Assembly: GCF_963921235.1 (NCBI RefSeq)
Contig: NC_086097.1
Location: 155,002,001 to 155,066,000 of the forward strand
Reading direction: 5' to 3'
Source: Mobula hypostoma
Lineage: Eukaryota
Length of the DNA stretch: 64,000 bases
In this document: positions 15,820 through 63,422 of the stretch, piece by piece
Position numbering within the stretch: position 1 is the stretch's first letter
How the letters are laid out: each line of letters starts with the position of its first letter
The notes under the pieces: generated by a model
Told to the model about the DNA's origin: nothing
The model's input: the letters and a program-made list of their open reading frames with translations, nothing else
The model's database searches: none
Position numbers and translations under genes: made by a program

Positions 15820-16478
15820 ACTAACATTTTGACAAACTTGTATAGATGAGTATATTGACTGGCTGCATCACAGCCTGGTATGGAAACATCAATGCCCTTG
15901 AACGGAAAATCCTACAGAAAGTAATTGGATATGGCCCAGTCCATCACAGGTCGAGTCTTCCCCACCATTGAGCACATCTACACAAAACATTGACAGAGGA
16001 AAGCAGCATCCATCATCAGGGACCCCCACCACTCAGGACATGCTGTCTTCTCACTGCATCCATCAGGAAGAAGATATAGGTGCCTCAGGACTCACACCAC
16101 CAGGTTCAGGAACAGTTACTACCCGCAACGATGAAGCTCTTGAACCAAAGAGGATAACTTAACTCAACTTCATTTTGGCATTGAAATTCCCACAACCTAT
16201 GGACTCACTTTCAAGGACTCTTCATCTCATGTTCTCGATATTTATTGCTTATTTGCTGTATTTATTATTATTATTATTATTTCTTTCTTTTTGTATTTGC
16301 ACAGTTTGTATCTTGCACACCAATTGAACACCCAAGTTGGTGTTGGCCTTCAATGATTCTATTGTGGTTATTATTCTATTATGGATGTATTGTGTATGCC
16401 TGCAAGAAAATGAATCTCATTGTTGTATATAGTGGTATATATATACTTTGGTAATAAATTTACTTTGAACTTTGAACT
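15820..16478 (+). mobile_element. Rex1/Babar LINE 3' fragment
   Basis: Encodes ILTGCITAWYGN...; tail aataaatttactttgaactttgaac. Confidence 0.8.
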
Positions 16479-16560
16479 TCAAAATGCTGGAGGAACTTAG
16501 CAGGTCAGCAACATCTATGGAGAGGAATGAACAGTCAATGTTTTGGGTTGAGAAAGGTCT
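16479..16560 (-). repeat. Penelope-type terminal repeat fragment (hammerhead-bearing family)
   Basis: aaaatgctggaggaacttagcaggtcagcaacatctatggagagg...cagtcaatgttttggg matches the family at 36876 and 40686. Confidence 0.7.
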
Positions 16561-17231: not shown

Positions 17232-17311
17232 GCCCTGAAACGTCCACTGTACCTCTTCCTAGAGATGCTGCCTGACCTGCTGCGTTCACCAGCAACTTTT
17301 ATGTGTGGTGC
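17232..17311 (+). repeat. Penelope-type terminal repeat fragment
   Basis: ccctGAAACGTCcactgtacctcttcctagagatgctgcctgacctgctgcgttcaccagcaac; 5' half of the ribozyme core is missing. Confidence 0.7.
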
Positions 17312-19065
17312 CCTTTCTTAAGTTTAGCAATAATCCTTTGTCTTCTCCTTCTTCACATGTGGGTGGGGAGTGGAGGTAGCTGAATATGGATGGATAATTG
17401 AAGTATGTTTATCTTCATTGCATATTTTCTTCACTTGTATATGGTGATGTGGAATTGGATAGAAGAAACGCCGGCACGTAATTATGATTTAAACCAGGGC
17501 TGGAATTTCAAAAAGTCTTCAAGTGAACAGACTTGTATACAAAGGCACAAACAATTTATGGTGAAGACATATGATTTTATATTTGGGAAGAATTTAAAGC
17601 CATATAGACTAAAGCTATTGAGTGGTATGGATAGGCAAAGGGACTGAGAAGTTCAAATGTAAATGTGTGAGATAGCTGCATTATCTAAACTAAAAGAATA
17701 CCAGGTGTATGGTATAGAACTTGTGTGGGTTTGATACCAAAGAGGCTGTTTCTAGCCTTCTATATTACCACCTTCTAAAACAGTATAGAACAAAGAGCAC
17801 ACTTAAAGTCGAAATAACTTGTAAAATTTTGAAGTAATTAAAGGAGACAGCCATGAACAAAATAGAGCTGGCAAACTATTTTACTCCCTTTTCCAAATAT
17901 CCTACGGGTGAGACAATCCACATAAAAAAACAGATCGTGGAAACGTCACACTCCATGTTTTTGACATCATTGAGACAAAATGATTTCTAACTGTCCAAAA
18001 TCTACTGTTGCCTTGGAAGTTAATGCAGTGCCTTTTAATTGTTTATTTTAAATAATTTGTTCGTTTCTCTAGTAGTTAGATGCTCTCATGCATTGAAAAT
18101 GGAAAGAACAGTCATTAGCTTTCATTTGACTATGTGGCACTTAAAATAAATCATAGACAGAAATAGTTTTGATTACCCTACTCATTTTTGGCCAAGAATG
18201 ACAAATGGTTAGTACATCTGCAATCCAAATTTGAGCTCCAACATAACTCCAACAACATGGTATAGAAGAGAGTTCATTTTTTTCGTCTTTTCCAGCTTTA
18301 GGTAGAGTAACTCAGCATGAAACTTTGTTTGTGCACATAAAAAGGACCAATCATTCAGCTAAACAGAAAATGAGCAGCAGGAACTCCAAGCAAATTTTGA
18401 AATGAAGATAAAATAGAGTATTTGTTTCTAGTGCCCATTCACTGCATAAAAATAATAGGCTAGTCAATGAATTGCTTGGAATGCACATCAGAACAACAGT
18501 AAGTGTATACACTTACTCAAAAATATACAGTGAATTTGTAAGCCATTCCAGTGTACAAGCTGCACTTCACATGGCTCTCATTCCATCATCAAAGTTCTAA
18601 GTACAAAGTATATTTAAATATGCATACTATATGCAACCTTGAAATTCATCTCCTTGTTCTGCAAATGCTTTTACATTTACAACATCTTTTGTGAGTCGAG
18701 GAAGAGCCTCCAGAATTCACAGCCCCTTTCATCCACCCTTCCAGCTGTCAGCTCATGTACCACACCCCAATCCCTGCAACAGTAGCCTAATCTGTCAGCA
18801 AGCTTTGAGCAGCATTGCTTTAAATTAGACAAGTAGTTTTAAACCTGGAACTCAGGACCCTCCATCAAGGATAATCTTTGTTTTTTTGCTCTCTTATATT
18901 TCCTTGCTTTGGGCAATTTGACAACAGTTAACCAATGGATAATGGCAGGTTCTTATATCAGAAAATGAATGCTCAAACATTGTAAGTATGCACATGCTTC
19001 TTCAAAACCTCCAGGTAACATCTTGCCTGATGTGCCCCAGCAAGTAACAAACAGCAACCACTTAC

Positions 19066-19632
19066 TTTGACATAATCTCTGCCGTAGTATTCCTCGGATC
19101 TTGTCTATGGCATTGAAATCAGTAACATGGAACATGTGAGCAGATTTGGGTTCGGAAGCAATCTCTTCCAGTTCCTCCTCAAGGGCATCACCAACTCCCA
19201 CAGCGAAGAGCCTGATGCCAGCAGAGTGAGCCAAAGTGGCATTTGGCAAGACTTCATCTTGGCTTCTGCCATCAGTCAGGAGGATTGCTACTTTCTGGAT
19301 GTTCGGATTATTGGGTCTTCCGCCTTCCCATTGTGAGAAGCTATTCAAAGTGATGTAGCCAATGGCTTCCCCAGTTATGGTGTTCCCACGTCGATACCTG
19401 ATGCTTGCTGCAGCCTGCTTGATATCTTCTGTGTTTTCATAGGCACCTAAGTTGAACTCAGTGTGTGGCTTGTCACTGTAACTTACAACCGCTACCCTGG
19501 TTTTATCAGGACCGATGTCAAAAGTGTCCACCAAGTTGGCCACCCACTGCCTGACCTTTTCAAAATTCTCCTTGCCCACACTATAGGAAGTGTCCAGCAG
19601 AAAGACCAAGTCATAGTGGACATTCTTGCAGC
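19066..19632 (-). CDS. col22a1: Collagen XXII alpha-1, exon encoding the N-terminal von Willebrand A (VWA) domain (567 nt, phase 1-1)
   Basis: Translation GCKNVHYDLVFLLDTSYSVGKENFEKVRQWVANLVDTFDIGPDKTRVAVVSYSD...LLTDGRSQD...EIASEPKSAHMFHVTDFNAIDKIRGILRQRLCQ closely matches the vertebrate COL22A1 VWA sequence as I recall it. MIDAS DxSxS, T and TDG are present. Minus-strand acceptor TTTTACAG|GC (exon starts 19632) and donor CAAA|GTAAG (exon ends 19066). Length is 189 codons. Confidence 0.96.
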
Positions 19633-23795: not shown

Positions 23796-25004
23796 TAACT
23801 TCCCATCCAGGTACAAGGAGCACTTGTACCTTGCATGGAACTAAATGGTGAAGACATCACTTGACTTTTTAACTTCAATCCTCATCTTTACCAATCGCTC
23901 TGAAAAAAAATCACCGTGAAGTTGGAATATGTTACAAATTCATTTTGATTGACAATGCATCATTAAATAATGTATCAGCGGGCTGGAAGGAAGGTGATCA
24001 AGGTGGATGTATTAATGTCAGATAAAACATGAGTTTTTAACATTGTGAGCAGAATTAAGGTATGAAAGTTTTTAAACAATTTGCTTGTATCAATAAATTG
24101 ATTGTTCAAATCCATAAGGGACAAGAATTAATTATGTTCTGATATATTCTCCCACCACCAGCAGAGTTATGCAACTTAACTTCTCTGTGATGATGGAGGA
24201 AAGCATATTGGATCACTCCATTTTAGTATATACCTGAAACAATTTTTCCTTATGCAAGCTACACAAAGCAAGGTAAAACAAATTATTGTTCTTGCAATGG
24301 TGCTCACCAATGGTTGCGCTCTATCAGAACACATTGAAAGATCTCTTGCCCGATACCAAATATTTTGCATTTACAATTAACTGCCACAGGCTTCTGATCA
24401 GTCTGAAGTAGGCTAAATTTATGGACCAGCTGGCACCTTGCTGAAAATAAGTACCATTTTTGCTTTTTTATTGAATGAACACAGCTGAGTTCACAGCTGA
24501 GCTGAATCAACTGACCTGCACATGAAGCACCCTGTTATTAGGCGCAGTTCTAAGCAAAAAGCTGTGCCCAATAAAAGGTACAACCTGTTTTGTGATAATC
24601 TCTTTATATTAAATGAAAATGGACTGAAAATAGTACTCACAGTTAAAGTGAATGCAGCGCATTGAGCTTTCAGTTAAAGACAGGATTTACATAATGTATA
24701 TACTCAGTATTAGCACATGAACAGAAAGAAAAAAAACAAAAGAGAATGAGATCAAGAAAGAAAGAGAAAGAAAAGGGAATTATGTTTGCTTCAATGACCT
24801 CAGGCATGTAATATTACAGCTAAAGAAACGCTTTGGAGTATGGCTATAGTTGTAGTGCGAGAAACAGAACAACACATTTGTCCATGGCAAGGTCCACAAT
24901 GAAAGCGTGATCATTATCAGATAATTTGTCTCCCTGATTTTGGGGTGAACTTTCTGGCTTTTCTTCAAAATAGCACCATGAGACTGCAAATATGAGCACT
25001 TTGT

Positions 25005-25390
25005 AGAAAGTGCAAATGCTGGAATCTGGAGCAACAATCTGCTGAAGGAATTCAGTGGGTCAAGCAGCATAGAGGGATGATAGGAATTGTCCACATTTTG
25101 GGTTGAAACCCTGCATCGGTCCTGAGAGAAGAGAGGCATAATGGTCAGTATAAAGAGGGGCTGGGGAGTAGTGAAACACCAGTCCCAGGTCATTAGTGGA
25201 TGTGGAGGGATATAAGATGATAGACAGGGAAAGGGTGCAGGGGTGGAGCTGGCATACTGTGGCAGGTGAATGATTGATGAAGACAGGCAAAGATACAAAG
25301 GGAAAAATATAGAGGAGAGGGATCTAGGCTAGGGAAAGAAAGTGTGAAGACTGAAGACAGCTGCTGGAGGAGATAAGCAGGAACACAAAG
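25005..25390 (-). mobile_element. Penelope-like element 3' end: pyrimidine-rich tract plus degenerate hammerhead-bearing terminal repeat
   Basis: Minus strand CCGATGCAGGGTTTCAACCCAAAATGTGGAC followed by the family 3' segment. The adjacent tract resembles 61890-61970 of the PLE in composition. Confidence 0.6.
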
Positions 25391-25442: not shown

Positions 25443-27366
25443 TGTCAGTATGTTCAGATATGGCCCAAGTGCAAAGGGAGAGATACTGAAGCGGGTCAAT
25501 AGTTCACAGATTTTAAAGCAAACAGGATTTTAAAGGGGAAAAAAAACCATAACACTCAGCCAAACAGGGCCAATAACTAAAACTCTCATGAAAACTGGAT
25601 GCCAACACTCCGGCTGAAAGTAATTTCTAAATATAAAATGAATACTGCTAGTCTTCAGCATCATTCGACTCGATAGTCCACTTTCTCAGGCAAGGCCGAA
25701 TGCAAGCAGGCAGTGTAATGTTACTGTGCTTTGCTCAAGTCTCAACAAGAGCTACAACGAAAGAAGGGAGTTAAATACCGCCATAGTAATTAGCTGACAC
25801 GTGAATATTCAAAAGCACAATTAACCAGTCTGCTGCTCACCCCGCCTGCAGGGGCCTGTACACCCTGCAGCCCAGTTCATGGTTGTGACAGGGCCCTCCT
25901 CCCTTGGTGCAGCTCCTGAGGTACCACAGACCTGGGTCTTCTGGAAGTCCTGGATGAGCGACTTGTCCAAGATGTCCTTTGCAGGGATCCAAGAGCTTTC
26001 CTCTGGACTATACCCTTCTCACTCCATAAGGTACTGGACCGTACCCCAGACCCGGTGAGATAGGAGGCACCACATAGTATAGACTAGGGAACCATCTACC
26101 AAGCGGGGAGGAGGGGGAAGTGGGGTGACTGGGTCTAGGGGAGAGGCAATAACCAGCTTGAGCTGGGAAACATGAAATACTGGGTGGATCTTCATTGATG
26201 CAGGCAGACACAATCTATATGATACCTTGTCGATGGCCTTTTCCACTACAAATGGTCCACATAGCACAGAGCCAATCTGCAGCTCTCAACTTTCAGGGGA
26301 AGATCCCTTGATGTCAACCAGACTTCCACTCCTGGCTTGAAAGCCTCACATGTCAGCGGAGATGATCAGCCTGCCAGGCACGTTGTTTCTGGGCGTGCAG
26401 CAGAGAAGTCCCAGCTCATCTCCATGTGCGCTTGTAGTGCTGGATCAGCTGTACAGCAGCAGGAACTCCTACATCAATCTCCTGGTCAGGGAAGAGCAGT
26501 GGATAGAATGTCTTCTAGCATTCAAAGGGAAGCATACTAATGGAGAACAAATGGAGATTATTATGTTCAATCTCTACCCAAACCAGTTGGGAGCTCCAGG
26601 ACATGGTGTTGGAAGAGGCAAGGCAGCGCAGGGTTGTCTCCAACTCCTGATTCACTCTCTCAGTCTGGCCTTTGGATTGGGGGTGGAAACCAAATGAGAG
26701 GCTGGCCATGGCTCCTACAAGAAAACAAAGTCTTCAAAAAGCGAGAAGTAAACTGTGGTCCACAATCAGACACTATCTGAGGGAAGACATGGAGCCTGTA
26801 CACATGTTGAACCATGAGGGTGGCAGTCTCATGAGCCAGTGGGAGTTTAGAGAGGGCAATGAAATGGGCAGCCTTGGAGAACTGATCCACAATGACCAAA
26901 ATGGTAGTGTTTCCATTAGATGAGGGAAGCCCAGTGATGAAATCCACTGAGAGGTGGGACCAGGGGAGGTGGGGCACAGGCAGCAGACATAGCAGACCCA
27001 CAGGATGCTGGCATGATGTCTTGTTCTGAGCACGGGTGGGGCAGGCAGATATGAAATCATGGACATCCTGGAACGTAGATGGACACCAAAATCGATCTTA
27101 ATAAACTCCAAGATCTGTTGAGTTTGCGGATGGCCAGCCAGAAGGGAGGAGTGGCCCCATTCCAACACTTTGGAGGTCACCGTAGCAGGGACAAATAGCC
27201 TGTTGGGAAGTCCCCCACGCGGTCATGGTTCCAATAGTTGGGTGACTTCGCCTCTGCCTCTGTTCCGCAGATCACCGGAGCAGCAATGCACAAGCAAGGA
27301 ATGATGGGCTTTGGGTCGGCATTGTCCTCAGATCCAGGCCCTGTAGCCGAGCCTGTGGTTGTGACA
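25443..27366 (-). mobile_element. Ty3/Gypsy chromovirus-type LTR retrotransposon, internally deleted (integrase and chromodomain remnant, 3' LTR, stub of 5' LTR)
   Basis: Integrase motifs HSSLLAGHP, PWSHLSVDFITGLP, IVSDCGPQFTSRF, FHPQSKGQTERVNQELE, GPF...IHPVFHVSQLK and chromodomain [36 protein letters not shown] precedes the 3' LTR (25890 to 25443, TG...CA). 5-bp TSD ctctc at 25438-25442 and 27367-27371. Confidence 0.92.
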
Positions 27367-32869: not shown

Positions 32870-33008
32870 AAACACAAGAGATTCTGCAGATGCTGGAAAT
32901 AGAGGAACACACTCTAAATGCTGGAAGAACTCTGCAGGTCAGAAAGCATCTATGCAAAAGAAAAATAAGTTGGCACTTTGGGCTGAGACTCTTCATCAGA
33001 AGTGAAGG
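32870..33008 (-). repeat. Penelope-type terminal repeat with partial hammerhead core
   Basis: Minus strand CTGATGA (32999-32993) AGAGTCTCAGCCC AAAGTG; the GAAA box is damaged. Confidence 0.7.
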
Positions 33009-33999: not shown

Positions 34000-35537
34000 A
34001 GGGGACCTATGTAACATCTTCAACATCTCTTGAGCAGCGCTGAGATTCCTATATGCTTCAAGGCCGTGACCATCGTCCCTGTGCCGAAGAAGTCTTCAGT
34101 GTCCTGCCTCAACGACTACCATCCTGTTGCACTCACATCCCTCATCATGAAGTGTTTCAAGAGGCTCGTTATGAGGCACATCCAGATCCTGCTGCCCCCC
34201 TCACTGGACCCCCTGAGGTTCGCGTACCATCCCAACCGTTCAACAGACGATGCCATTGCCATCACCCTCCACCTGGCCCTAACCCACCTGGACAAAAAAG
34301 GCATGTATGTTTGAATGCTGTTCATAGAATGCTGTTCAGCATTCAATACAGTCATTCCTCAGAAGCTGACTGGAAAGCTGAGCCTGCTGGGCCTGAACAC
34401 TTCCCTCTGCAACTGGATCCTTGGCTTCCTGACTGGGAGACCTCAGTCAGTCCGGATTGGAAGCAGCCTCTCCAACACCATCACACTGAGCACGGGGGCC
34501 CCCCAGGGCTGTGTGCTCAGTCCACTGCTGTTCACTCTGCTGACCCACGACTGTGCTGCAACACACAGCTCAAACCACATCATCAAGTTCGCCGATGACA
34601 TGGCCGTGGTGGGTCTCATCAGCAAGAACAATGAGTCAGCATACAGAGAGGAGGTGCAGCGGCTAACGGACTGGTGCAGAGCCAACAACCTGTCTCTGAA
34701 TGTAAACAAAACTAAAGAGATTGTTGTTGACTTCAGGAGGACACAGAGCAACCACTCTCTGCTGAACATCGACGACTCCTCCATAGAGATCGTTAAGAGC
34801 ACCAAATTTCTTGGTGTTCACCTGGCAGAGAATCTCACCTGGTCCCTCAACACCAGCTCCATAACAAAGAAAGCCCAGCAGCATCTCTACTTTCTGCGAA
34901 AACTGAGGAAAGTCCATCTCTCACGCCCCATCCTCACCACATTCTACAGAGGTTGTATTGAGAGCATCCTGAGCAGCTGCATCACTGCCTGGTTTGGAAA
35001 ATGCACCATCTCGGATCGCAAGACCCTGCAACGAATAGTGAGGTCAGCTGAGAAGATCATTGGGGTCTCTCTTCCCACCATTACAGACATTTACAACACA
35101 CACTGCATCTGTAGTGCGAACAGCATTATGAAGGACCCCACGCACCCCTCATACAAACTCTTCTCCCTCCTACCATCTGGCAAAAGGCACCAAAGCATTC
35201 AGGCTCTCACAACCAGACTATGTAACAGTTTCTTCCCCCAAACCATCAGACTCCTCAATACCCAGAGCCTGGACTGACACCAATCTACTGCCCTCTACTG
35301 TGCCTATTGTCTTGTTTATTATTTATTGTAATGCCTGCACTGTTTTGTGCACTTTATGCAGTCCTGGGTAGGTCTGTAGTCTATTATAGTTTTTGTGTTG
35401 TTTTACGTAGTTCAGTGTAGTTTTTGTATTGTTTCATGTAGCACCATGGTCCTGAAAAATGTTGTTTCGTTTTTACTGTGTACTGTACCAGCAGTTATGG
35501 TCGAAATGACAATAAAAAAGTGACTTGACTTGACTTG
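34000..35537 (+). mobile_element. Rex1/Babar-clade LINE, young 5'-truncated copy with a largely intact RT
   Basis: 320-aa ORF 34315-35277 ([26 protein letters not shown]) plus upstream ORF 34030-34314 ([17 protein letters not shown]). Tail aataaa...(gactt)n. 9-bp TSD aatttcctg at 33991-33999 and 35538-35546. Confidence 0.95.
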
Positions 35538-36591
35538 AATTTCCTGGAACATCCATCTCACAGAAAACCCAGATCAGGGACCCTCTTAGTTTGATGTGTT
35601 CTCTGGCACTGTGCTTTATGTCAGACATGCAACTCTGAATCATTGAAGATTTGGACTTCTAAAATGCAGGACATCCTAAACTGCACATAAATGTTTAAGT
35701 GCAGCAATTACTTTGGGCAAAACAAGATCATCTGGCAGCAACTCTGTGAAAATAATGAACAGAATAAGAGTTTCTCCAATGTTCAGCAAGAAAATAATAT
35801 TTCATAGCTTCTATTTCATTCTTTGTGAAACCATAAGACTCTGAAAAATTAGATGGAGTCTTGGTTTAATACGTCATCCCATATCCAGCATTTCCAGTCG
35901 AGGAGGAAACTCAGCAGCATATTTAGTAGTATCCTCAAGTCTCTAAGCACTTTAGACTCTGGATCTAGACTTCAACATTATAACCTTCTAACCCAGAATA
36001 TACAGCAAATGTGGAATATAAATATGGTTAAGGAATGGATTTTCTGATATGCAGGTTTTGAGCATCTCACAAGCATAAACTGCATTGAATTCATTAGTTC
36101 AATAATTTATAAAATTGAGATAATAATTTCTTCAGGATTGGGATATCACTAGAAATGATAACATTTTCTATTTTCCCTAACTGTCATTAAGCATCTTCAT
36201 GAATCCTTCCAGTCCTCTGGTAAAGATACTCCCAAACTGTTGTTGGGCAAGATCTCCAGGAACTATACCTACTGTAGCAACAATGAAGGGATGATGATAT
36301 ATTTCCAGGTCAGGATGGCAGGTGACCTGGAAAGAAACCTAGAGATGGTGGTCTTCTCATGAATTTGCTGCCCTTGTCTTTCTTGTAAAGTGTTGTCAAT
36401 GCCTAAGCAACTGTGGGGAATTTATAAGTGGCACATGCTGCAGACACTGTGTACAAGTGGTGCAGGGAATTAATACTTAGAGCGGTTGATAAAGTGGGCT
36501 ATTTTGTCTTGGATGGTATTGGGTTGTTTAAGCTGCATTCATCCAGGCAAGTGGAGTGTATATCTGGTGCAAGGTATGACTCCTTTGGTGA

Positions 36592-36800
36592 CGCAAGAGA
36601 CTGCAGATGCTGAAATCTGGAGAACATAAAATCTGGAGATCCTGAAATCTGGATGTACTCTGAGGCAGCATCTATAGTTGAAGTTCCAGTCCTGATTAAG
36701 TGTCTCAACCTAAAATATGGACTGTTTATTTCTCTCCATTGGTGCTGCCTGACTCACTGAGTTTCTCCAGTGCTGTTCTGTGTTGCTCCATGATTCCATC
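36592..36800. repeat. Inverted pair of Penelope-type terminal repeats, old and degenerate
   Basis: Minus-orientation copy 36592-36676 followed by plus-orientation copy cagtcCTGATTAagtgtctcaacctaaaatatgGACTG... to ~36800. Confidence 0.6.
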
Positions 36801-36873: not shown

Positions 36874-36994
36874 CAAACAAGAGAAAAACTGCAGATGCTG
36901 GAAATCCAAAGCAATGCACACAAAATGCTGGAAGAACTCAGCAGGCCAGGCAGCATATATGGAAAAGAGTAAACAGTCAACTTTTTGGGTTGAG
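36874..36994 (-). repeat. Penelope-type terminal repeat fragment
   Basis: aacaagagaaaaactgcagatgctggaaatcc...ggaaaagagtaaacagtc. Confidence 0.75.
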
Positions 36995-37062
36995 TGCGTG
37001 TTTTTTGTATGTGTTGTTTCCAAATACATATCTGATGTCAAGGGCAGTCAATATCACACACA

Positions 37063-39620
37063 ATTCAAAGTTCAAAGAAAAATTTATTATTAGAGTACAT
37101 ACACATCACAACATACAACCTTTTACATCTCCTTGTGAAGGAGATTCTTTTACAGCAGGCATACCTAGCAATAAATAACAAGCATGAAATAATAAGAGAA
37201 AAGAATCCTTAAATGACTGTGGTTATCTCCTTTTGTTCAAGAGCGTGATGGTTGAGGGGTAGTAACTGTTCTGGAGCCTGGTGGTGTGAGTCCTGAGGCA
37301 TCTGAACCTTCTACCTGATGGCAGCAGCAAGAAAAGAGCACGGCCTGGGTGATGAGGATCTTTGATGATGAATACTACTTTCCTACGGCAACATTTCATG
37401 TAGGTGTGCTCAATGGCTGGGAGGGTTTTACCCATAATGTACTGGGCTGAATCCACTACCTTTTGTAGGATTTTCCATTCAAAGACGTTGGTGTTTCTAT
37501 ACCAGGCCGTAATGCAGCCACCCGGCACAGTTTCCACCACACTTCTATAGAAGTTTGCCAAGGTTTTTGATGACATGCCAAATCTCCACAGACTCCTGAG
37601 GAAGTAGAGGTGTTGTTGTGCTTTCTTCACAATTATATTTACATGACGGGTCCAGGACAGGTTCTCTGAGATAGAGACACCCAGGAATTGAAAGTTACCG
37701 ACCCTCTCCACCTCTGATCCTCCGATGATTACTGGCTCATGGACTTCTGGTTTCCCTCTTCTGAAGTCTACTATCAATTCCTTGGTCATATTGATATTGA
37801 GTGAGAGGTTGTTGGTATTACACCACTTAGCCAAATTTTCATTCTCCCTCCTGTATGCAGATTCATCACCATCTTTGACACAGCCCATAACAGTGGAGTC
37901 ATCATCAAACATACTGTATATGGTGTTGGAGCTGTACTTAGCCACACAGTCTGGGTTAAAACGAGTAGAGCAGGGGGCTATGTGTACATCCCTGTGGTGC
38001 TCCTGCGCTGATGGAGATTGTGAAGGAGATATTTTTGCAAATCCAAACTGAGTGGGGCCTACAAGTGAGGAAATCCAGGATCCAATTGCACAAGGGGGTA
38101 TTGAGGCCTATGTCTTAGAGTTTACTGATTAGTTTTGAGGAGATGATGGTGTTAAATGCTGAGCTGTAATTGATAAAGAACATCCTGATATATGCACCTT
38201 TGCTGTCCAGATGTTCCAGGGTGGTGTGAAAAGCCAACGAGCTGGCATCTATTGTAGACCTGTTGCTTCGATAGGCGAATTGGAGTGGATCCAAGTTGCC
38301 ATTCAGACAAGAGCTTCAACACCAGCATCTCAAGTCACTTCATCACTGTGGATGTAAGTGTCACTAGGCAACAGGTGTTTAGACAGGTTACTACACCCTT
38401 CGTGGGCACAGGTACAATTGAAGCCTGCTTGATGCAGGTGGGTACCACACACTACAGGAGCAAGAGATTGAATACACAGCCAGCGGGTTGGCACAGGTTT
38501 TCGGTGTTCAGCCAGGTACTCCATCCGGACCAGCTGCTTTCCTTGGATTCACTCTCTTGAAGGCAATGCACGTCATCCTCAGATAAGGAGACCAAAGGAT
38601 CTTTGGGAGACATGGGTGTACGCGATGGTTGCTCCCTGTTCTGGAGGTCAAAGCAAGCATAGAGGCATCGGGTTCATCTGGAAGCAAAGCTCTGTTGTCC
38701 CCTATGTCACAAGTTTTAACTTTGTAGGAGGCTATGGCATTCGAACCCTGCCACGGTTGTCGAGCTTCCCTCGTTGACTCCAGTCCACTCCAGAATCTCC
38801 ACTTTGCGAAAGAGATGGCTTTCCGGAGATCATACCTGCACCTCTTGTGGCATTCTTGATCTCCAGAGCTGAATGCCTCTGATTTGGATCTCAGCAGGTT
38901 CCGGATTTCATTGTTTATCCAGGGCTTCTGACTGGGGAAAACTGTGAATGATTCTGTGGGGAATACATTCATCCACAGCTGTTTTAATAAAGCCTGTTAT
39001 GACCCCGGTGTACTCATTCAGGTCCTCAGATTAGTTCTTGAACAAGGCCCAGTCCAGTGACTCAAGGTAATCCTGAAACCATCCTCCACCTCCTACAACC
39101 ACCTCTTGGTTGTCTTGATCTCTGGAGCCTTGCTCTTTAGGCTCTGTCTGTATACAGGTAGCAGGAATACAGCCAAATGATCCAACTTACCAAAATGGGG
39201 TCTCAGGAAGGAACAATAAGCATTCCTTGTTGTGGTGTAGCAGTGGTCTAGTGTGTTGGGACTTCTGGTGCAACAGGTTATGTGCTGGTGATAACTGGGC
39301 AGAGTTTTCTTCAGACAGACCTGGTTAAAGTCAACAACTATAATTTGAAATGCATTGGGATGAGCTGTTTCTTGTTTACAGACAACATTGTGCAGTTTTA
39401 TGGGAGTGCTTGCTTATAATTAGCTACTGGTGCTATATAAATTGTGGTCAGGATCACAGATGAAAGCTCCTGAAGCAAATAGAATGGTCTACATTTAATC
39501 ATCAGTTGATCGAGTCAGGGGAACAAGAAGTTGATGTAACCCCAACGTCCGTACACCTATGAGAATTGACATAAAAGCATAGGCTGCCACCTCTTTCCCT
39601 ATCAGAGATCACAGTATGAT
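37063..39620 (-). mobile_element. Rex1/Babar LINE, long degraded copy (endonuclease to 3' tail)
   Basis: ORFs 37223-37945 (RT C-terminus) and 38508-38972 (FPSQKPWINNEIR...VNPRKAAGPDGVPG); endonuclease remnants up to ~39600. Confidence 0.9.
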
Positions 39621-39804: not shown

Positions 39805-39920
39805 ACAGACAAGAGGAAATCTGCAGATGCTGGAAATCCAAGCGACACAGACAATGTGATGGAGGAACTGCCAACATCTATGGAAAAGAGTACAGTCGAT
39901 GTTTCGGGCCAAGACCTTTC
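39805..39920 (-). repeat. Penelope-type terminal repeat fragment
   Basis: Minus strand GGCCC GAAAC ATC GACTG; the CTGATGA box is absent. Confidence 0.72.
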
Positions 39921-40685
39921 TACACTTCAGCATGGTTTGAATTCTGCCCCTCCTACCGTGTTGTCAGCCATGGCATTGACTCTTAAATGTGCTGCACTTA
40001 ACTACTCTGCATTTAACCATCGATCATTGTCATAATTTCATTGTCTGTTGTTAAGAGGAAACTTATGTGGGCAGATTGCAGCAAAAGTAGTTCAAAAGGA
40101 GTATATTTAAGAGGAAAACTGATTCAATCTCCTACAGCCCACAGAGAGTTGTCAATGTACACCAGCACCATCTTTCAATCCATCTCTCAATCCATGTTTT
40201 TGGCCAAACCTTGGCACATTGGTCCTCTCATTACACAAGCTGATAAGTATTCTAATTGAATAGATAAGGCATTACTTAGATGAATTGAATTTTTCCCACT
40301 TTTTCTGAACAAGATATCCTTTGCAGTTTTCCAAGTATTTGGGTAGACGCCAGTGTTGCAACTGAATTTGAATTGCTTAGGCTGGAGATACGGTGATTTT
40401 TGTACATGGTTTTCAGCACTGCATTTGGGATGTTTCTGGTTCCATACCCCTTGGAGTACTCAATGGTCTTAGCCATTTGTTAACAGCAAATGGCTAAGAT
40501 CACTGAATACACCAAAGTGATGGTGGGGATTTCAGAAGGAAGGGAAAAAAGATTTTCCACTTGTACTGAAAATGGCTGTCTAAACATTACTCTTGCCTGT
40601 ATGCTGGGCCTTGCTACGGTTTAGGATGGGGATAATTTTTCAGAATTTCTAAATCGTCCCAAATCCAACAGGATTTCTATACCCA

Positions 40686-40908
40686 AACAAGAGAAAATCT
40701 GCAGAGCTGGAAATCCAAGCAACACACACAAAATTCTGGAGGAACTCAGCAGACCAGACAGCATCTATGGAAAAGAGTAAACACACAATGTTTTGGGCTG
40801 AGACCTGATGAGGGTCTCAGCCTGAAACATCAACTGTTTACTCTTTTCCATAGATGCTGTCTGGCCTGCTGAGTTCCTCCAGAATCTTGCATGTGTTGCT
40901 AAGATTTC
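40686..40908. repeat. Palindromic Penelope-type terminal repeat, ~88-bp arms
   Basis: Arms 40718-40805 and 40813-40900 are reverse complements with few mismatches. Confidence 0.88.
40805..40836 (+). ncRNA. Minimal type I hammerhead ribozyme-like core, probably inactive copy
   Basis: CTGATGA-GGG-tctcag-CCT-GAAAC-ATC: both conserved boxes and stem II are present. The 5' strand of stem I is lost and GTC has become ATC. Confidence 0.55.
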
Positions 40909-41659
40909 TATATCTCAGGACTCTGTTTTATTTTCCCATTTTCATTGCTCCTCCATTGGTGGCTGTGTCTTAATCTGCCTAGGTTGGATTTCAGAAAATT
41001 GCTTCTGAAATCTTTTTTTTAAACTTCCTGCCTCTCGTTTCTCCTTGAGGTTATTTCTCGAAACCAGTACTAATATCACCTTTTAAAATTATCTTGAAAT
41101 GCTTTAGCTTGTTAAAAGTGCTATATAAATGCAGGTTCTTGTTCTGCATTCAATTATACATGAAAATAATTTTATCTGGCTTATTCAGCCCAAAATTTGT
41201 ACAGTTACACATTTTTTCTTTGTTGATTATTACAAATAATAAATGAGATAATTAATTCCTGTGGTTGCAAAATCCAGGCCTTAAGGGGAAAGAGGCCAGC
41301 AGTTGTACAGTAAGTCCAGTTGGGCCCAGCAAAGGGTTGGTGATAAAGTGGCCAAACCTTGGAATCCTGAGCAAAGCCTCCAGTGGAGCCATATTGGAGG
41401 AGACAATGAATTGAATGTGGAGATTGAAAGTTTGGAAAGAAAATTGAAGGCTAGGGATTTAGCAAGGCCCAAGACTAATTGTTTGTTTAATGTTGAAAAG
41501 GTTTTAGAGCAAAGGGTAAATTTGTTTATCATTGTTGCATAAACCAAGTTACAGCGAAAAGCTTGTTTGCATACCACTCATCCAGATCAATTTATTACAA
41601 CAGTGTATTGTGGTAGTGCAAGGTAAAACAAATGAATGCAGAATAAAGTGTTGATGGGA

Positions 41660-44987: not shown

Positions 44988-45187
44988 AGCTGGCACTTCT
45001 TCCAGTGCCTGTGATTAGTAATTAAGGTTCAATTCCCACCACTGCCTGTAAGAAGTTTGTACATTCTCCCTGTGATTGTGTGGATTTCCTTTGGGTGCTG
45101 CAGCTTCCACCTACGTGCCAAAGAGGTCCGGGTTAAAGTTAGGGAGTTGTGGGCATGCTATGTTGATCCTAAAAACATGGCGGCACT

Positions 45188-45303
45188 AGGAATTCTGCAG
45201 ATGCTGGAAATTCAAGCAACACACATCAAAGTTGCTGGTGAACACAGCAGGCCAGGCAGCATCTCTAGTGCCTGGCCTGCTGCATTCACCAGCAACTTTG
45301 ATG
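45188..45303. repeat. Palindromic Penelope-type terminal repeat, 35-bp arms
   Basis: Arms 45224-45258 and 45269-45303 with 2 mismatches at one decayed CpG and a 10-nt loop. Confidence 0.85.
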
Positions 45304-49775: not shown

Positions 49776-50139
49776 GACCTCAGTTGTCTTGCATTCCATG
49801 CCACTTGACCGTAACCCTGATCTGTCAAGAACCACATGATAGCTACCATGCATCAGACGCCCCACATTAAACTAAGTGGTGCACAGGTGTCCTCCATTAA
49901 GGGATCCACCTGAACATCCCAGATTGGCCTCTACAGCCACCCTAGGACCTACCAATAGACAACCTCTTAAGAGAACATCGTACTCAGCTCAAGAGATTGC
50001 ACTACTAGAGAAATAGGTGGAGGACTGGGATTGTTATCAAACCCAGTGAAAACTTGATGGCCCAAATAACCTCCTTCTACATCATGAAGAAATATATGAA
50101 ATATGAGATAATAATTTCTTTCATTACTTATTGCATTAG

Positions 50140-50935
50140 TAGTGAGCAACCTACAGAGCCTGTAGGGAGCCTACAGGGAAGAAGTCATCACCCTAACACA
50201 GTGATGTCAAGAAAACAACCTCTCCCTCAATGTTGCAAAAACAAAGGAGCTGGTTGTGGACTACAGAAGGAATGGAGACAGGCTAACCCCTATTGTCATC
50301 AATGCAGTGGGGTTGAGAAGGTGACCAGCTTTAAGTTCTTCAGCATAGACATCACCAAGGATATTGGCTATTTGGTGAAAAAAGTACAACAGCACTTCTT
50401 TCACCTTGAAGAAGTTTGGCATAAGTTCCCAAATCCTAAGGACTTTGTACAAGGGCACAATTGAGAGCATCCTAACTGGTTGCATCACTGCCTGGTATGG
50501 AAACTGTACTTCCCTTAATCACAGAGCACTGCAGAGATTGGTGTGGACAGCCCAGCACATCTGTAGATGTAAACTTCCCACTTTTCAGGACATTTACAGA
50601 GACAGGTACATAAAAAGGGCCCATAGGATCATTGGGGACCTGAGTCACTCCAACCACAAACTGTTCCAGCTGCTACCATACATGAAATGATACTGCAGCA
50701 TAAAAGCCAGGACCAACAGACTCTGAGACAGTTTTTACCAGCAGGCCATCAGACTGTTTAATTCATGCTGATACAGTTGTATTTCTATGCTATATTGATT
50801 ATCCTGTTGTACATACTATTTATTACAAATTACTATAAATTGTATATTGCACATTTAGACAGAGACGTAACATAAGGATTTTTACTCATGTATGTGAAGG
50901 ATGTAAGTAATAAATAAAGTCAATTCAATTCATTC
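50140..50935 (+). mobile_element. Rex1/Babar 3' fragment
   Basis: TIESILTGCITAWYGNCT; tail aataaagtcaattcaattca. Confidence 0.82.
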
Positions 50936-52619: not shown

Positions 52620-55220
52620 TAGTTGCAGAAGGCAGTGATTTGGGTTGGTGGGCTGGTCTATATTCAAGGAATCATCAATGATGATTCCTTGAACAGTGAG
52701 TGGCATCCAACTCTTCACTGATGATTGAGTTCATTTATGTGAAGTGAAGACTATTTTATATACCAAAGGAGTTCACTACAGTTGTGCTGGTAGCTGTATA
52801 TATCCTCCGCACGCCACCCCCCACCCTGCTAACGCTGGTGAGGCACTGTGAGCTCTACGGCACCGTCAGTGACTTTCAAACCAGACACCCTGATGTTACC
52901 TTCATTGTCGCTAGCGATTTTAACCATTTAAATTTTTTTTTTTTAAAAGTCCTGATTAAATTCCACCAGCATGTTGCTTTTGCTACCACAGTTGAAAATA
53001 CACGAGACCTGGTTTATACTAACCTGGCTGCTGATCAAGGGGGCCAAACCAGTTCTAAAAGTGGTGAAAACCTGGCCTGAGGGAGCAATCTCAGCACTGG
53101 AGGACTGCTTTGAGAGCACAAACTGGAGAATGTTCAGAGAGACTGCTACCTATGGCAGCCACATCAACATCAAGGAATATGTAGATTCTGTGACCAGCCA
53201 CATAGAGAAATATAATGAGGATGTTACCATCAGGAAACACATCCGGCTGAGGGCAGATCAGAAGCCATTTCTTACTTCAGAGGTCCATGCATAGTTGAGG
53301 GATCGTGATGCTGCCTTCAGATTAGAGGATGTGACAGCTCTCTGGGAAGTAAGAACTGTGGTATCCCACTCCATCAGGAAGGCAAAATGGGAGCATTCTC
53401 AGAGAATATGCAACCACTTCTGTGATACCAAGGACACGATGTGCATGTGGCAGGATTCAGAGGTTTACAGACTCTAAGTCTACCCAGCGTGTCAGTGACC
53501 AGGATCCCTCACACCCCGAGAGGCTGAATGTCTTTCATACCTAGTGTGATGTGCAGAACAAAGTGCTGGTGAGGAAGGCACCCCTCCCCCCAGGGGAGCA
53601 GACACACCATCTGACTGAAGCTGTGAGGAAGCCCTTGGCCTGAGTCAACCCACACAAAGCTGCAGGGCCCGATAATATACCAGGTCAGGTTCTGAAAGGC
53701 TGCGCAGCCCAGCTAACTAAGGTTCTGATGGATATATTCAGCTTCTCTCTGGAACAGGCTTGCCCCTTTGTTTTTAAGGTGGCAACCAGTGCCAAAAAAG
53801 GTGACAGTAATTTGCCTAAATGGCTATCGTCTGGTGGCATTAACATCAACCATTATGAAATGCTTTGAGTGGCTGGTCATGGAGCTCATTACAGCCTTTT
53901 TCCTGGCTACATTGTACTCTTTCCAGTTTGCTTACTGCTCGAATTGATCCACCAACAATGCAATAGACTCTGCCCTCCACTCTGTCCTGTCCCACCTGTC
54001 CTGAAAGATAGGGTCTTGTATGCCAACCTGCAGCTTATAAACTTCAGTTTGGCATTCAACACCATCATACCTCAGAAAATGGTGAGAAAACTGTCCTCAC
54101 TGAGTCTCAACACCTCCCTCTGCAACTGGATCCCCGATTTCTTAACAGAAAGGCCACAGTCAGTCTGTGTTGGGGCAGCAGCGGTTCTAGTCCTATTACG
54201 CTGAGCACAGGTGCTCTCCAGGGCTGCTTGTTCAGCCTGTTGCTGTTGACACTGTTGACACGTGACTGTGTCGCAGGATCCAGCTCAAACCGTGTCATCA
54301 AGTTTGCAGATGACACAACAGTGACTGGCTTCATCAACAGCAATGAGACAGAGGACAGCAAGGAAGTGGAGTGGCCGGTGGATTGGTGAGAGAAGAACGA
54401 CCCAATTGTGAATGTGGAGAAGACCAAGGAAATCATTGTCGACTTCAGGAAGGTGCAGTTGACCCATTCCCTTCAGCGAATAAATAGCTCCTCCATAGAG
54501 AGAGTTAACCACACCAAGTTCCTGGGAGTTCACGTCACGGATGACCTCATCTGGTCCCTTATTATCACCTCCCTGAAAAGGAAGACACAGCAGCACCTGC
54601 AGCTCCTAAGCAGACTAAGGCAAGAGAGGCTCCCCCTCCCATATATTAACCACATTTTATCGGAACAGCATTTTGAGCGTCTTGACAAGTTGCATCTCCA
54701 TCTGGTACGGGAGCAGCCAAGCATCAGACCAGAAGTCCCTACAAAGGACTGTAACAATGGCTGAGAGGATCACAGGGGCCTCCCTACCATCCAGCAGGGA
54801 CATTTATCAAAAGTGTTGTATACGCAGGGCCCTTAGTATTATTAAGGTTCCCACCTATCCATCTACCCTCCTCTTTGACTTTCTACCACCGGGCAGGACA
54901 ATCCGATGCATAAAAACAAGAACAGTCAGGATGGGAAACTTTCTTCCCTCAGGCCATTAGGCTTCTGACTCCTTGACACATTGCATTCAAAGTGTCACTT
55001 GTTAATCTGTTCTGTACTTTACAATATTTAATGTATGCACTTTAGTTTGTTTATTTATACGTAATTCATCCGTAGATTTTACCCGTGCTTCCATAAGTTA
55101 TTGGGTGTTATGTGCGTTATGTGTACTACTGTGCTTTACACCCTGGTTCAAAGAGACATTGTCTCGTTTATACAGTATACCCGTATATAGTAAAATGACA
55201 ATAAGTTTGACCTGACTTGA
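52620..55220 (+). mobile_element. Rex1/Babar LINE, long degraded copy
   Basis: Endonuclease (VAVYI, ASDFNH), RT ([17 protein letters not shown]) and tail ataagtttgacctgacttga. Confidence 0.88.
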
Positions 55221-56860
55221 CAAATACACCACAGTTGTCATTGACTTTATTAAAACACTTGTGGATGAGTGTGTCCCCACAAAATCATTCAGTCTTCCCC
55301 AATCAGAAGCTCTGGATGAACCATGAGAAGCACAACCTGTTATGGGCTTGGTCTATTGACCGAGTATAACATTAAAAATCCAGGTATGATCTCTGGAAAG
55401 CCAACTCGTGCAATGTGGCAATTCCAGACCAAACTTGAATCACAGAAGGATGCTCAATTTCTGCTATCACCTCCCTCAAAGTAAAACAAATGACATACTG
55501 TACGTGACAACAAGGTTTCATTCCCAGATGAGCTCAATGCCTTTTTGTTCGTTTTCACTGACAGAAAAAGTAAGACAACTTCATGATCTCCCACAACCCC
55601 TGAAGACCCTATGATTTCAGACTCTAAGGTCTATGGAAGAACATCCTTCAGGAGGATGAACCCAGTGAAAGCATCTGACCCAAACGGCGTACCTGGCTGA
55701 GTACTGAATAACCATGCTAATCGACTGGCCGTAGTGTTTTATCCTCTTGTTTCAGCACTCTGAAGTGCCCTTTGCTTCAATTTTTCTGGTGCCCAAAAGA
55801 ACATGGTAACGTGCCTCAATGACTTTCATCTAATTATGTGAAGAAGTGCCTTGAGAAGTTGGTGATGAAATATATTAACTCGTGCCTAAGGAGTGACTTG
55901 GATCAGCTCCAATTTGCCTACATTCTGATGATGTATACATCAAGATGTTCTTTATTAACTGCAGCTCTGCATTCAACATTATCATCCTCCCTAATCCAAT
56001 CAATAGACTCCAAATCCCAAGCCTCAATACCTCCTTGTGCAACTGGATCCGTGAGTTTCTCACTTGCAGACCTCGTCAATTTGGATTGGCGACCACATCT
56101 CCTCCACAATCTCTATCCGCACAGGTGCACCACAAAGCTGTGTGCTTAGCCCATGGCTTTACTTGCATTATACTTATGACTGTGAGGCTAAGTACAGGTC
56201 CAATACCATATTTATGTTTACACATGGGGCACCACTATTGTAGGATAAATCAAAGGTGGTGATGAATCAGCATGTAGGAGGGAGATTGAAAATCTGGCTG
56301 AAAGATGCCATAGCAACAACCTCTCACTCAATGTCAGCAAAACCAATGAACTGATTATTGGCTTCAGGAGGAGGAAACCAGAGGTCTATGAGCCAGTCCT
56401 GATTGGGGAATCACAGGTGGAGAGGGTCAGCAACTTTAATTTCCTCAGAGTTATAATTTCAGAGGATCTGTCCTGGATCCACCACACAAGTGCCATCACA
56501 AGGAAAGCATGGCAGCGCCTCTTCTTACTCAGAGGTTTGCAAAGATTCGGCATGTCATCTAAAACTTTGACAAACTTCTATAGATACTTGGTGGAGACAA
56601 TACTGACAGGTTGCATCATGGACTGGTATGGAAACCCTCAGCCAGATCTTCAATCTCCCTCCTATCTGCTGATTCATCACCACCTTTGTTTCTGCTAATG
56701 ACAGTTCAGGAAGTTATTAGCCCTCAACCATCAGGCTCCTGAATCAGAGAGGATAACTTCACTCATCCCAACACTGAAATGATTCTACAACCCATGGACT
56801 CACTTTCAGGAATTCCTCAACTTGTGTTCTCATTTATTAGTTATTTATTTATAATGTAAT
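55221..56860 (+). mobile_element. Rex1/Babar LINE, degraded; similar subfamily to 37063-39620
   Basis: MKKCLEKLVMKYINSCLRSDLDQLQFAY, SSAFNII, and FGMSSKTLTNFYR. Confidence 0.85.
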
Positions 56861-58009
56861 TAACCTCTCTCTCTGTTGGCTCTCAATGAGTTAGCTTTTA
56901 CTGTGAATTCAACCGAACTGTAAAATAACTCTACAATGCCTGGGAATAACAATGAAAGATGTCATTTCCATTAAATGAACATGTCTAAGGTAAATGTGAT
57001 TTCAGGCACACACAAACATAAAAGTCTGAATGTTCCTTCTAAGGGAAAACGAAGGCAGTTACTGTATGAACACTGACACACCCACATAGATTTACCATTC
57101 GCCAAGAAACTATAATTTACAGCAGTATAAACTTGTATAAAAATGTATAAAAATGTATTGACAAAGATTTTTAAGCTGTAACAAACAATAATACCATATA
57201 ACACGAAATAAAGAAAATACCCATCATATATATAAATAATAGTCTATATTGTGCATGTAATCATTGGTGCTTATTGTTAGGTAATCAATCCAGTTTGCTT
57301 CACTTTGTTTAATCATGGTACTGAACCGGCTTTTTATTGAAGAACCCATCCCAGGGAAAAATTACTTACACAAGGTCCAAGAGAAAAAAACATCAAACTT
57401 TCTCCAAGGTCATGTGCTAACTAACTAAAAGTTAACTGTACATTCTCCAAAAGATCACTGTCAGCATAAGAGTTCTCCTGCAGTGGTCTCTGTCCTTCCA
57501 AGTAGGTCCTGTGAGCTTTTCAGCATGTTTCTCTGCTATATTCATTGCCTGTTTCCATTCTCCTTCTTTCTCCTTCTTCAATCTCACGTTCTCCCTGGAA
57601 AATGGCTTCCTGTTCTTTTGCCCGTGCTGCCTCTAGCATTTTCCCAAGGCAAATCCTAGTGGCTAATTCAACACCCCTAACTTATCAATCAACTGAACTT
57701 TTATTGTAAATAGCAAAAATGAAATACTTGATTGTATAATGGAATTAAAGGAACACCTACTGCATTTTGAGAAAATCTGCAGAAAATGAAATACCCAACA
57801 GCATAGCTGCATAAATAAAACAATGTTTTAAACTGGGGTATTACAATTATTATTTTGTTTATTTTTCTTATTGTATTTGCAAAATGTGCTGTTGTTTGCA
57901 CATTGGTTGTTGGGTTGTTGGTCTGTCTTTGTGTGCAGCTTTTCTTTGATTACATTATTATTTTTACTGTGAATGCCCACAAGAAAAAGAGAGCGCATAT
58001 AATAGAGCA

Positions 58010-61245: not shown

Positions 61246-61541
61246 AAACTTTAGAGTATTTTGGTCCATGTGTATCTGAAACCATCCCATATCTAATCCA
61301 TTGAACAGAGAGTGCAATTACCCTCCTTAGTTTGTTAATGAGCTTGCTTCATTTCACTGCTTGCATCTTTTGAAGCTTAATAACATTTTAATGACATGTC
61401 AGCAATGGTTGGAAACTGTTAATTTAATTCAGAACTGACAATTTCTACAAGCGCTAATCTTGCCTTTGAACGACAATGCAGAGAAAATGTGCCACCTTGT
61501 GTTACAGGTTGAAAATTACAACAAAACTGATCTGGTTTGAG

Positions 61542-61883
61542 GAACATAGAACATATAAAATTACAGCACATTACAGGCCCTTTGGCCCACAGTATTGTGC
61601 CGACCATGTAACCTACTCTAGAAACTGCCTATAATTTCCCTTGGGCACAGCCCTCAGTTTTTCTAAGCTCCATGTACCCATCTAAGAGGCTCTTAAAACA
61701 CCCTATTGTATCCACTTCCACCACTGCCACCAGCAGTGCATTCCAAGCACCCACCACTCTTTGTGTGAAAAACTTAACCCTGACATCCCCTCTGTACCCA
61801 TTTCCAGGCACCTTAAAACTATGCCCCCTCGTGTTAGCCATTGCAGCCCTGGAAAAAAGCTTCTGGCTATCCACATGATCAAT
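61542..61883 (-). mobile_element. CR1 3' end
   Basis: TRGHSFKV...FFTQRVVGAWNAL; tail aacatagaacata. Confidence 0.85.
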
Positions 61884-61884
61884 A

Positions 61885-63422
61885 CTCCAGAAGGAGGTGA
61901 TGGGCAGGGAGGGAGATAAGGTGAGAGAGGGAAAAGGGAATGGGGAATGCTGAAGGGGGTGGGGGTGGCATTACCAGAAAGTCAAGAAATTAATGTTCAT
62001 GCCATAATGTTGGAGACTACCCAGACAGAATATAAGGTGTTGCTCCTCCTACCTGAGTGTGGCTTCATCGCAACAGTAGAAGAGTCCATGGACTGACATG
62101 TCAGAATGGGAATGGGAAGTGGATTTAAAAGGGGCTTCCACTGGGAGATCCTGCTTTTTCTGGCAGACAGAGCATAAGTGCTAGGCGAAGCAGTCTCCCA
62201 ATCAACATCAGGTCTCACCAATATACAGGGGACCCCACTGGGATCACTGAATACAATAGATGACCCCAACAGACTTACAGGTGAAGTGTTGCCTCACCTG
62301 GAAGGACTGTTTGGGGCCCTGAATGGTAGTTAGGGAGAAGGTGAATTGGCAGGGGTGGCACTTGTTCCGTTTGCAAGCTAGTGCAAATCAGTAGAGTGGG
62401 ACGAATGGACAAGGGAGTCACGTAGGGACCGATCCCTACGGAAAGCAGAAAGTGGGGGGAGGGACAGATGTGTTTGCTGGTGGGATCCCATTGGAAATGG
62501 CGGAATTTAAGGAGCATTATATACTGGTGGGGTGGTAGGTGAGGACAAGAGGAACCATATAACTAGTGGGGTGACGGGAGGATGGGGTGAGGGCAGATGT
62601 GCACGAAATGGAAGAGATGTGGTTGAGGGTAGCATTAATGGTGGAGGAAGGGATGCCCTTTCATTGAAGAAGGAGAACCTCTCCTTCGTTCTGGAATGAA
62701 AAGCCTCATCCTGAGAGCAGATACAGCAGAGATGGAGAACTGAGAGAAGGGGGTGGCAAGTAACAGGGTGGGAAGAGGTATAGTTGATGAAGTTGACGAG
62801 CTCCATGTGGGTGCAGGAGGCAGCAGCGACGCAGTCATCAATGTAACGAAGGAAAAATTGGGGAGTGACACCAGTGTAGGTTTGGAACATAGACTGTTCC
62901 ACATAGCCGACAAAAAGGCAGCTTAGCCAAGATCCACAAGAGTATCCATGGCTACACCTTTTATTTAAAGGAAGTGGGAGGAGCCAAAGAAAAAATTATT
63001 GAGAGTGAGGACCAGATCTGCCAGACAGAGGAGAGAGGTGAAGGGGAACTGGTTGGGTCTGGTGTCCAGAAAGAAGCAGAGAGCATTGAGGCTTTCTTGC
63101 TGAGGGATGGAGGTGAATAGGGTCTGGACATCCATAGTGCAAATGAGATGACCAGGGCCAAGAAACCTGAAGTCATTGAAAAGATCAAGAGCGTGTTAAG
63201 TGTCACAGATGTAGGTAAGAAGGGGCTGAACTAGGGGGAATAAAACAGTCAAGGTATGCAGATATAAGTTCATGGGGGCCAGAACAATCCGAAACAATGG
63301 GTCTACCTGCACAGGCAGGATTATAGATCTTGCGAAAGAGGAAAAAACGGGAGGTGCAGTGTAAGGAAGCTATGAGGTTGTTGGTAGTGGATAGGAGATC
63401 CCCAAAGTTAATAAGGCCAGTG
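61885..63422 (-). mobile_element. Penelope-like retroelement (PLE) remnant: reverse transcriptase and GIY-YIG endonuclease
   Basis: Minus-strand motifs TMDVQTLFTSIP, LVLTLNNF, KGVAM and FLRYIDD, then GVIYCI...LYIGET...HL...EEQHLIF. Frameshifted, with stops. Confidence 0.88.

Follow-up and report, generated by a model that had tools for sequence, protein, structure and literature searches.

Minimal hammerhead ribozymes (min-HHRs) have been described in the pseudo-LTRs (pLTRs) of metazoan Penelope-like elements (PLEs), and their traits, including all of those parsed here, were listed by Cervera and de la Pena 2014 (PMC4209133). These motifs share with the family reported below the same core boxes, an extra base between positions 9 and 10.1, a G10.1-C11.1 pair, a palindromic 15.2-16.2 segment without loop III and a helix I of 5 bp; they too occur mostly as solitary copies from truncated elements, with some opposite-strand pairs. 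Insertions of EN+ PLEs are known to carry inverted pLTRs, target-site duplications of 8-10 bp, an optional tail of ~31 bp and palindromes at their junctions (Arkhipova et al. 2013, PMC3846280; in agreement, Craig et al. 2021, PMC8557442). The biochemistry is known for one element alone, PAc of Anolis, a member of the Poseidon clade (Frangieh et al. 2024, PMC11167929). The PAc protein nicks and extends both target strands and was modelled as a dimer, reverse transcription begins from two neighbouring internal sites that define the tail, and uncut RNA serves as template, the hammerhead cutting only with the protein present. Finally, non-LTR animal retrozymes are likewise PLE-derived, non-coding and equipped with a type I hammerhead (Li, Clavereau and Pollet 2026 preprint). 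They form head-to-tail tandem units with a hammerhead in each, whereas the copies described here are solitary or head-to-head and have ragged 5' ends. A search of the literature and supplements, with most subscription journals and repeat databases outside its scope, returned no paper on the cartilaginous-fish PLE hammerhead family presented here.

The window is a stretch of 64,000 nucleotides from Mobula hypostoma. Pairwise blastn and a profile search identified in it one repeat family of ~130 nt, comprising 12 arms at 9 loci (Table 1). Arm-versus-arm blastn E-values within the window reach 5e-30; the nhmmer E-values of the arms are circular, as the model was trained on the same copies. The count of 12 omits two weak candidates (57740-57844 and 5074-5157, both in the profile training set) and three weaker matches. 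An initial annotation of this DNA had listed about 11 copies, and all 11 were recovered, with the entry at 45188 resolved into an inverted pair. The six motif positions it cited proved exact (CAGTC at 36687; CTGATGA at 40805 and, on the minus strand, 32999; GAAACGTC at 17237; GACTG at 36720 and, on the minus strand, 39897), and what it missed was the head-to-head pairing at three loci and the target-site duplication at the 40686 pair. Around the 17232 arm, a direct repeat of 7 bp (17230-17236 and 17308-17314) is a possible target-site duplication. At the 45188 pair, the 8 bases outside the left arm (45182-45189) are the reverse complement of 8 at the inversion junction (45265-45272), which may be chance.

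Table 1. Positions of repeat arms and associated features in the window
Feature	Position	Strand	Remarks
Single arm	16474..16559	-	Begins near loop II; 3' end short
Single arm, second sequence type (common to 45188)	17232..17312	+	Sole copy with GAAA and GUC intact; lacks CUGAUGA
Host VWA-domain exon	19066..19632	-	567 nt; AG and GT flanks
Divergent arm (24998-25123) preceded by ~200 nt rich in pyrimidines, a candidate PLE 3' UTR	24998..25330	-	Motif whole but mutated
Single arm	32870..33005	-	CUGAUGA intact; G12 changed to A; triplet broken
Second inverted pair, left arm	36591..36682	-	Begins downstream of cut site; long tail
Second inverted pair, right arm	36686..36790	+	Both strands of stem I intact, as in no other copy; mutations in core
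Single arm	36875..36997	-	Begins near loop II; tail full
Single arm	39807..39917	-	Stem II near-intact; GAAA; internal deletion; tail full; lacks CUGAUGA
Target-site duplication, left copy	40672..40681	+	10 bp
Flagged pair, left arm	40686..40805	-	Remnant of stem II; GAAA box and triplet both decayed; downstream segment complete, with extra tail of ~23 nt (40686-40708)
Flagged pair, right arm	40804..40908	+	CUGAUGA 40805-40811; stem II; GAAA 40824-40827; AUC triplet; no tail; no 5' stem I strand
Target-site duplication, right copy	40903..40912	+	Its initial six bases match the end of the element as well
Third inverted pair	45188..45303	45188-45269 minus; ~45265-45303 plus	Both arms begin downstream of hammerhead
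Broken PLE reading frame and start of 3' UTR	61885..63422	-	RT with YIDD, Cys linker, GIY-YIG-type C-terminus (frame ~61990-63420)

The family is not confined to the window. Contigs from public runs that fit 40560-41050 at 80% likeness number 95,009 in run X1, 84,115 in X5, 68,541 in X9 and 5,567 in X20; these totals show a high abundance of the repeat in three organisms and are not a copy number. The contig evidence is drawn from these four runs, with seven others of small share (X10-X19 group) left out. Run X20 is taken as RNA by guess only, and with no depth on the flanks of the 40686 locus (15 of 29 bins covered) it carries no claim of expression. One X20 contig of 1,066 nt, at a depth of 1,040 and aligned to 40724-40843, spans the centre of another palindromic copy and retains the extra base after CUGAUGA; if X20 is RNA, a palindromic copy is abundantly transcribed elsewhere. 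The repeat has also entered protein annotation. The last 31 residues of P0007, a Mobula hypostoma gene model, are repeat-derived, with 83% identity of their letters to the 36874 arm; ray gene annotations are thus contaminated by the family.

Nine of the 12 arms cover part of the hammerhead motif when aligned by coordinates. Among these nine, CUGAUGA is kept in two, GAAA in three and GUC in one, and the complete motif in none, in line with the earlier statement that no single copy is intact. The plain majority consensus fails the min-HHR descriptor, since 6 of the 9 arms have A at G12. Four motif columns are mixed TG/CA, the pattern of CpG decay. When CG is restored at these four columns, the resulting consensus (38 nt) satisfies the minimal type I hammerhead descriptor, and only then does the overlay of copies in the initial annotation match, at 38 of 38 positions. 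That annotation would have been refuted by a consensus lacking CUGAUGA, GAAA or stem I pairing; all are present in the CpG-restored form, whereas the plain majority form fails the descriptor. Its parse of the motif, with CUGAUGA, GAAA, a GUC triplet, a stem I of 5 bp and a loop-less palindromic helix III, is correct for the ancestral sequence. The family, its ancestral motif and the decay pattern are shown by these data.

The ancestral motif has type I topology, with a helix I of 5 bp and a helix II of 4 bp, a single additional base ahead of stem II, between positions 9 and 10.1, a G10.1-C11.1 pair and a palindrome at 15.2-16.2. Pair probabilities in the restored consensus are 0.93-1.0 for stem I and 0.9-1.0 for stem II. 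Position 11.4 is G in 4 of the 9 arms and A in another 4, and both pair with U. The extra base is missing in the 40805 arm and is seen as an insertion at 40810 in the run contigs. Two features set this motif apart from those in PMC4209133: helix II has 4 bp and a loop of 4 nt, against 7-8 bp in the Schistosoma motifs, and its four CpG sites expose it to fast decay. The ancestral motif may have been catalytic. The dimer co-fold of the motif pairs across the palindrome but differs from the catalytic fold and is given no weight as evidence.

A descriptor scan of both strands of the window gave no match, and an Rfam scan of the window gave 19 matches up to E 10 without a hammerhead, the best being hairpin look-alikes on palindromes, all below the gathering score. 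The location of G12 and of the helix III palindrome within CpG sites explains why Rfam and family-consensus searches miss such motifs. Pattern scans for the motif DNA returned 0 and 1 matches in viral contigs, 2 in metagenome contigs and 8 in prokaryote genomes. Both metagenome matches were rejected as hammerheads, their loci being unrelated coding DNA, and the other nine are presumed to be chance.

The upstream consensus columns rest on just 3-4 copies, which is why the run contigs matter. Loose ends before 40811 finish in the stem I strand and CUGAUGA in 1,727 contigs of X1, 1,580 of X5, 1,206 of X9 and 122 of X20, so that the run contigs supply the missing stem I strand and CUGAUGA independently of the window copies. 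The letters ahead of that strand are pyrimidine-rich, with an agreement of about 0.5. Behind 40771, the loose ends in X1 (472 contigs) are intact over the palindrome (ACGU), triplet and 3' strand of stem I but have A at G12, and the consensus of those in X5 has G12 and a decayed palindrome. At four right-arm CpG positions in X1 the ancestral letter is the depth-weighted minority (26, 28, 33 and 41%), a measure biased toward contigs resembling the decayed copy that was used as reference. G12 itself is retained in 90% of right-arm depth. The hammerhead might be an artefact of stitching mutated copies together, the family then being a SINE- or MITE-like repeat without a ribozyme. The lack of an intact copy, the failure of the majority consensus and the silence of Rfam would fit, yet every one of the four restored columns is a TG/CA-mixed CpG site, the missing pieces are given independently by loose ends genome-wide, and the descriptor was matched by none of 300,000 shuffles of the 133-nt consensus-plus-tail string, a chance below 1 in 300,000 for a string of this size. 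An artefact is thus extremely improbable.

The locus at 40686-40908 is a head-to-head pair of arms identical at 84 of 97 positions. Two C bases at 40804-40805 can be assigned to either arm and form a junction microhomology. A flanking duplication of 10 bp arose by chance in 4 of 5,000 draws; it is 12 bp long in organisms B and C (runs X5 and X9), through one base change at 40671. Contigs of both organisms bridge flank and element on both sides of the insertion, indicating that it predates the split of B and C. The insertion with its flanks (40672-40912) is common to organisms A, B and C with few changes. As a fixed and old insertion it is usable as a phylogenetic marker. Either strand folds as a single, very stable hairpin (-147.7 and -159.4 kcal/mol; z -18 and -21), and the loop of this hairpin holds the CUGAUGA box. 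Judged from its letters, the right arm cannot form a ribozyme, because the 5' stem I strand is absent and AUC stands in place of GUC. The proposal that the repeat has seeded self-cleaving RNA motifs is overstated as far as the window goes, since mutations affect each copy in it and the hairpin traps the one at 40686.

Across the window, head-to-head pairs occupy 3 of the 9 loci and single arms the other 6, and in all three pairs the longer 3' end is found on one arm only. The 5' ends of the 12 arms are ragged, ranging from the UTR to beyond the motif. Nine arms run through the cut site, three begin downstream and none begins at it, indicating that uncut RNA was copied; this distribution fits the mechanism described in PMC11167929. 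In five of the nine through-running arms the end lies within or beside stem II, suggestive of stalling at that point. Direct repeats of at least 10 bp flank the insertion at one locus of nine, the 40686 pair, and were found at none of the other eight. The inversion points differ among the three pairs, and the joints of other inverted copies in the run contigs fall at several different junctions, some palindromes sharing one near stem II; the inversion point is therefore variable. No head-to-tail tandem units occur among the nine loci. A MITE, with fixed terminal inverted repeats and length, was considered and rejected, given single arms at 6 of 9 loci and the differing pair junctions. The palindromes, the duplication, the tail asymmetry and the lack of starts at the cut site are features of the window itself, and the architecture of 40686-40908 is that published for PLE insertions. 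It shares with the EN+ PLEs of PMC3846280 and PMC8557442 the head-to-head inverted truncated repeat, the tail at one end and a duplication that is 8-10 bp in those papers, and differs in that its arms are too short to leave a reading frame between them, the whole insertion being about 220 bp. With PAc it shares a hammerhead shortly upstream of the insertion ends, an optional tail and run-through of an uncut site; PAc belongs to a different clade, and an overlap of hammerhead and start codon was not found here.

The PLE remnant reported earlier at 61885-63422 is real and contains a broken PLE reading frame. It matches full-length proteins with RVT_1 and GIY-YIG domains over both domains (tblastn; P0032, E 3e-30), and a Cys motif precedes the nuclease in its translation. 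Among named sequences it is closest to fragments from sharks, at 59-65%, the top ones being models of whale shark and bamboo shark. Searches of the broken PLE frames gave no Pfam match and no significant PDB match. The element is probably a Neptune-type PLE, the clade being read from the Cys linker before GIY-YIG that it has in common with the elements in PMC3846280 and PMC8557442. Near 61880 a LINE fragment truncates its 3' UTR. This LINE fragment belongs to clustered pieces of another LINE type (3140-8900 and 61540-61880), partly tandem with a spacing of ~740 nt. Directly at the 5' end of the remnant begins another, distinct repeat (63423-64000), which has short tandem duplications inside it and is possibly an LTR-element end.

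Within the window no PLE reading frame continues into, or adjoins, a repeat arm. The one sequence link is a weak alignment of 64 columns between two pyrimidine-rich stretches, that ahead of the 25005 arm and the UTR of the remnant (12 of 2,000 shuffles as good; blastn E 0.06). Compared with two sets of proteins (153 and 132), the arm had no match below E 0.027 save P0007, which had been found with the repeat peptide as query, and these comparisons lend no support to a pLTR that extends into the beginning of the reading frame. P0007, with its repeat-derived end, is not a PLE protein; it was the only match among the 13 candidates obtained with the repeat-encoded peptide. The identification of the repeat as a PLE terminal repeat thus stands on the type of motif and the insertion architecture, by which a PLE origin is strongly supported, and the physical join to a PLE reading frame is presumed.

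Taken together, the repeat is best explained as the 3' terminal stub (pseudo-LTR and optional tail) of a Neptune-type PLE, the ancestral stub containing a dimer-type minimal type I hammerhead, and we consider the following scenario as a whole highly probable. The RT/GIY-YIG protein of the element would nick the target DNA, and reverse transcription would begin about 70-95 nt downstream of the hammerhead, at either of two neighbouring start points. Uncut RNA would serve as template, and copying would mostly stop early, often in or near the stem II hairpin, to give insertions of 50-130 nt. Where both target strands are primed, two stubs would join head to head and produce a palindrome with a one-sided tail and a target-site duplication. 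The 40686 palindrome would thus consist of two truncated copies from the two target strands, joined at the microhomology of 2 bases. The four motif CpG sites, including C11.1-G12 and the helix III palindrome, would then decay with loss of the core, and the flagged copy, folding as one long hairpin, would form no hammerhead. The two start points, the nicking and extension of both strands and the uncut template are taken from the literature on related elements and may hold here by analogy. Likewise, the stubs and the local reading frame presumably belong to the same element, and we infer priming from two ends.

Other readings concern the autonomy of the element and the origin of the palindromes. 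The stubs may instead represent a non-autonomous element in its own right, of a retrozyme-like or fold-back kind, whose transcripts would be cut by the hammerhead and then copied by a PLE protein acting in trans. Non-autonomous retrozymes that derive from PLEs have been described, as have solo monomers, one chondrichthyan genome included (bioRxiv 10.64898/2026.07.22.740005), and both the very many contigs on the repeat (95,009 in X1) and the palindromes with a common junction near stem II would agree with this. Such an element is nevertheless unlikely in view of the ragged 5' ends, from UTR to beyond the motif, with 0 of 12 at the cut site, the variable inversion points among the three pairs and the run-contig joints, and the lack of head-to-tail tandem units in the window. 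The initial annotation had offered a terminal repeat or a non-autonomous derivative; the former is retained, the copies being better understood as PLE insertions truncated at the 5' end and dead on arrival than as a separate element.

More weight attaches to the possibility that the PLE origin holds while the palindromes arose without priming on two strands, either by self-priming of a single folded-back template or by gene conversion between the arms at a later time. At 40686 the two arms agree in a pair of non-CpG variants (40735/40883 and 40758/40860), the other letter being present in about 89-90% of the aligned depth; this points to one source locus, fold-back or later conversion, and self-priming on an antisense template has been proposed in PMC3846280. 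However, two RNAs from one source locus would also carry identical variants, the arms differ in their 3' end points and are framed by a target-site duplication, and the Anolis protein, modelled as a dimer, extends both strands (PMC11167929). Fold-back or conversion is accordingly regarded as possible but doubtful, and priming on both strands is kept in the preferred scenario of truncated PLE insertions.

The window contains a single VWA exon (Table 1), presumably of col22a1 in view of a likeness to collagen XXII; domain searches assigned it to VWA and to nothing more specific. A search of the window for Gly-X-Y runs gave none. The placement of the copies in col22a1 introns can thus be kept in part: the 16480 and 17232 copies lie downstream of the donor site of the exon, while those above 19.7 kb are either intronic or upstream. 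On the strand of the host gene, the 40686 locus presents the arm without CUGAUGA. The exon has a strong acceptor at 19633, yet beyond it the frame (19066-19699, minus strand) continues without a stop as far as an ATG at 19699 and includes a hydrophobic stretch resembling a signal peptide; either start is possible. Other mobile sequences in the window include an LTR-retrotransposon integrase fragment at 26660-27222 on the minus strand (rve and zinc-binding matches) and copies of one LINE type at 34315-35277 (plus), 37223-38107 (minus), 50009-50690, 54012-54960 and 55823-56698. The copy at 34315 has an intact-looking RT frame of 320 aa that also matches Pfam ALKBH8_N.

Every repeat copy in the window is a mutated fossil of the known association between PLEs and hammerheads. 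The family adds a cartilaginous fish, a host not found in the examined text and supplementary files of PMC4209133, to an association already described, and as it stands this matters little. It is conceivable, though very unlikely, that intact young copies in transcribed genes complete helix III in trans, through the ACGU palindrome and another transcript, or with the PLE protein, and so constitute a genome-wide, dose-dependent RNA-cutting system switched off by CpG methylation and decay; the window shows no intact copy and no cut that would bear on this, and contigs cannot show RNA ends. The repeat family is, in addition, a large natural record for two open points in PLE biology, the origin of the inverted pseudo-LTRs and the role of the hammerhead cut in transposition. 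Its copies are numerous enough for both points to be addressed through their 5' ends, their inversion points and the variants that separate one arm from the other.
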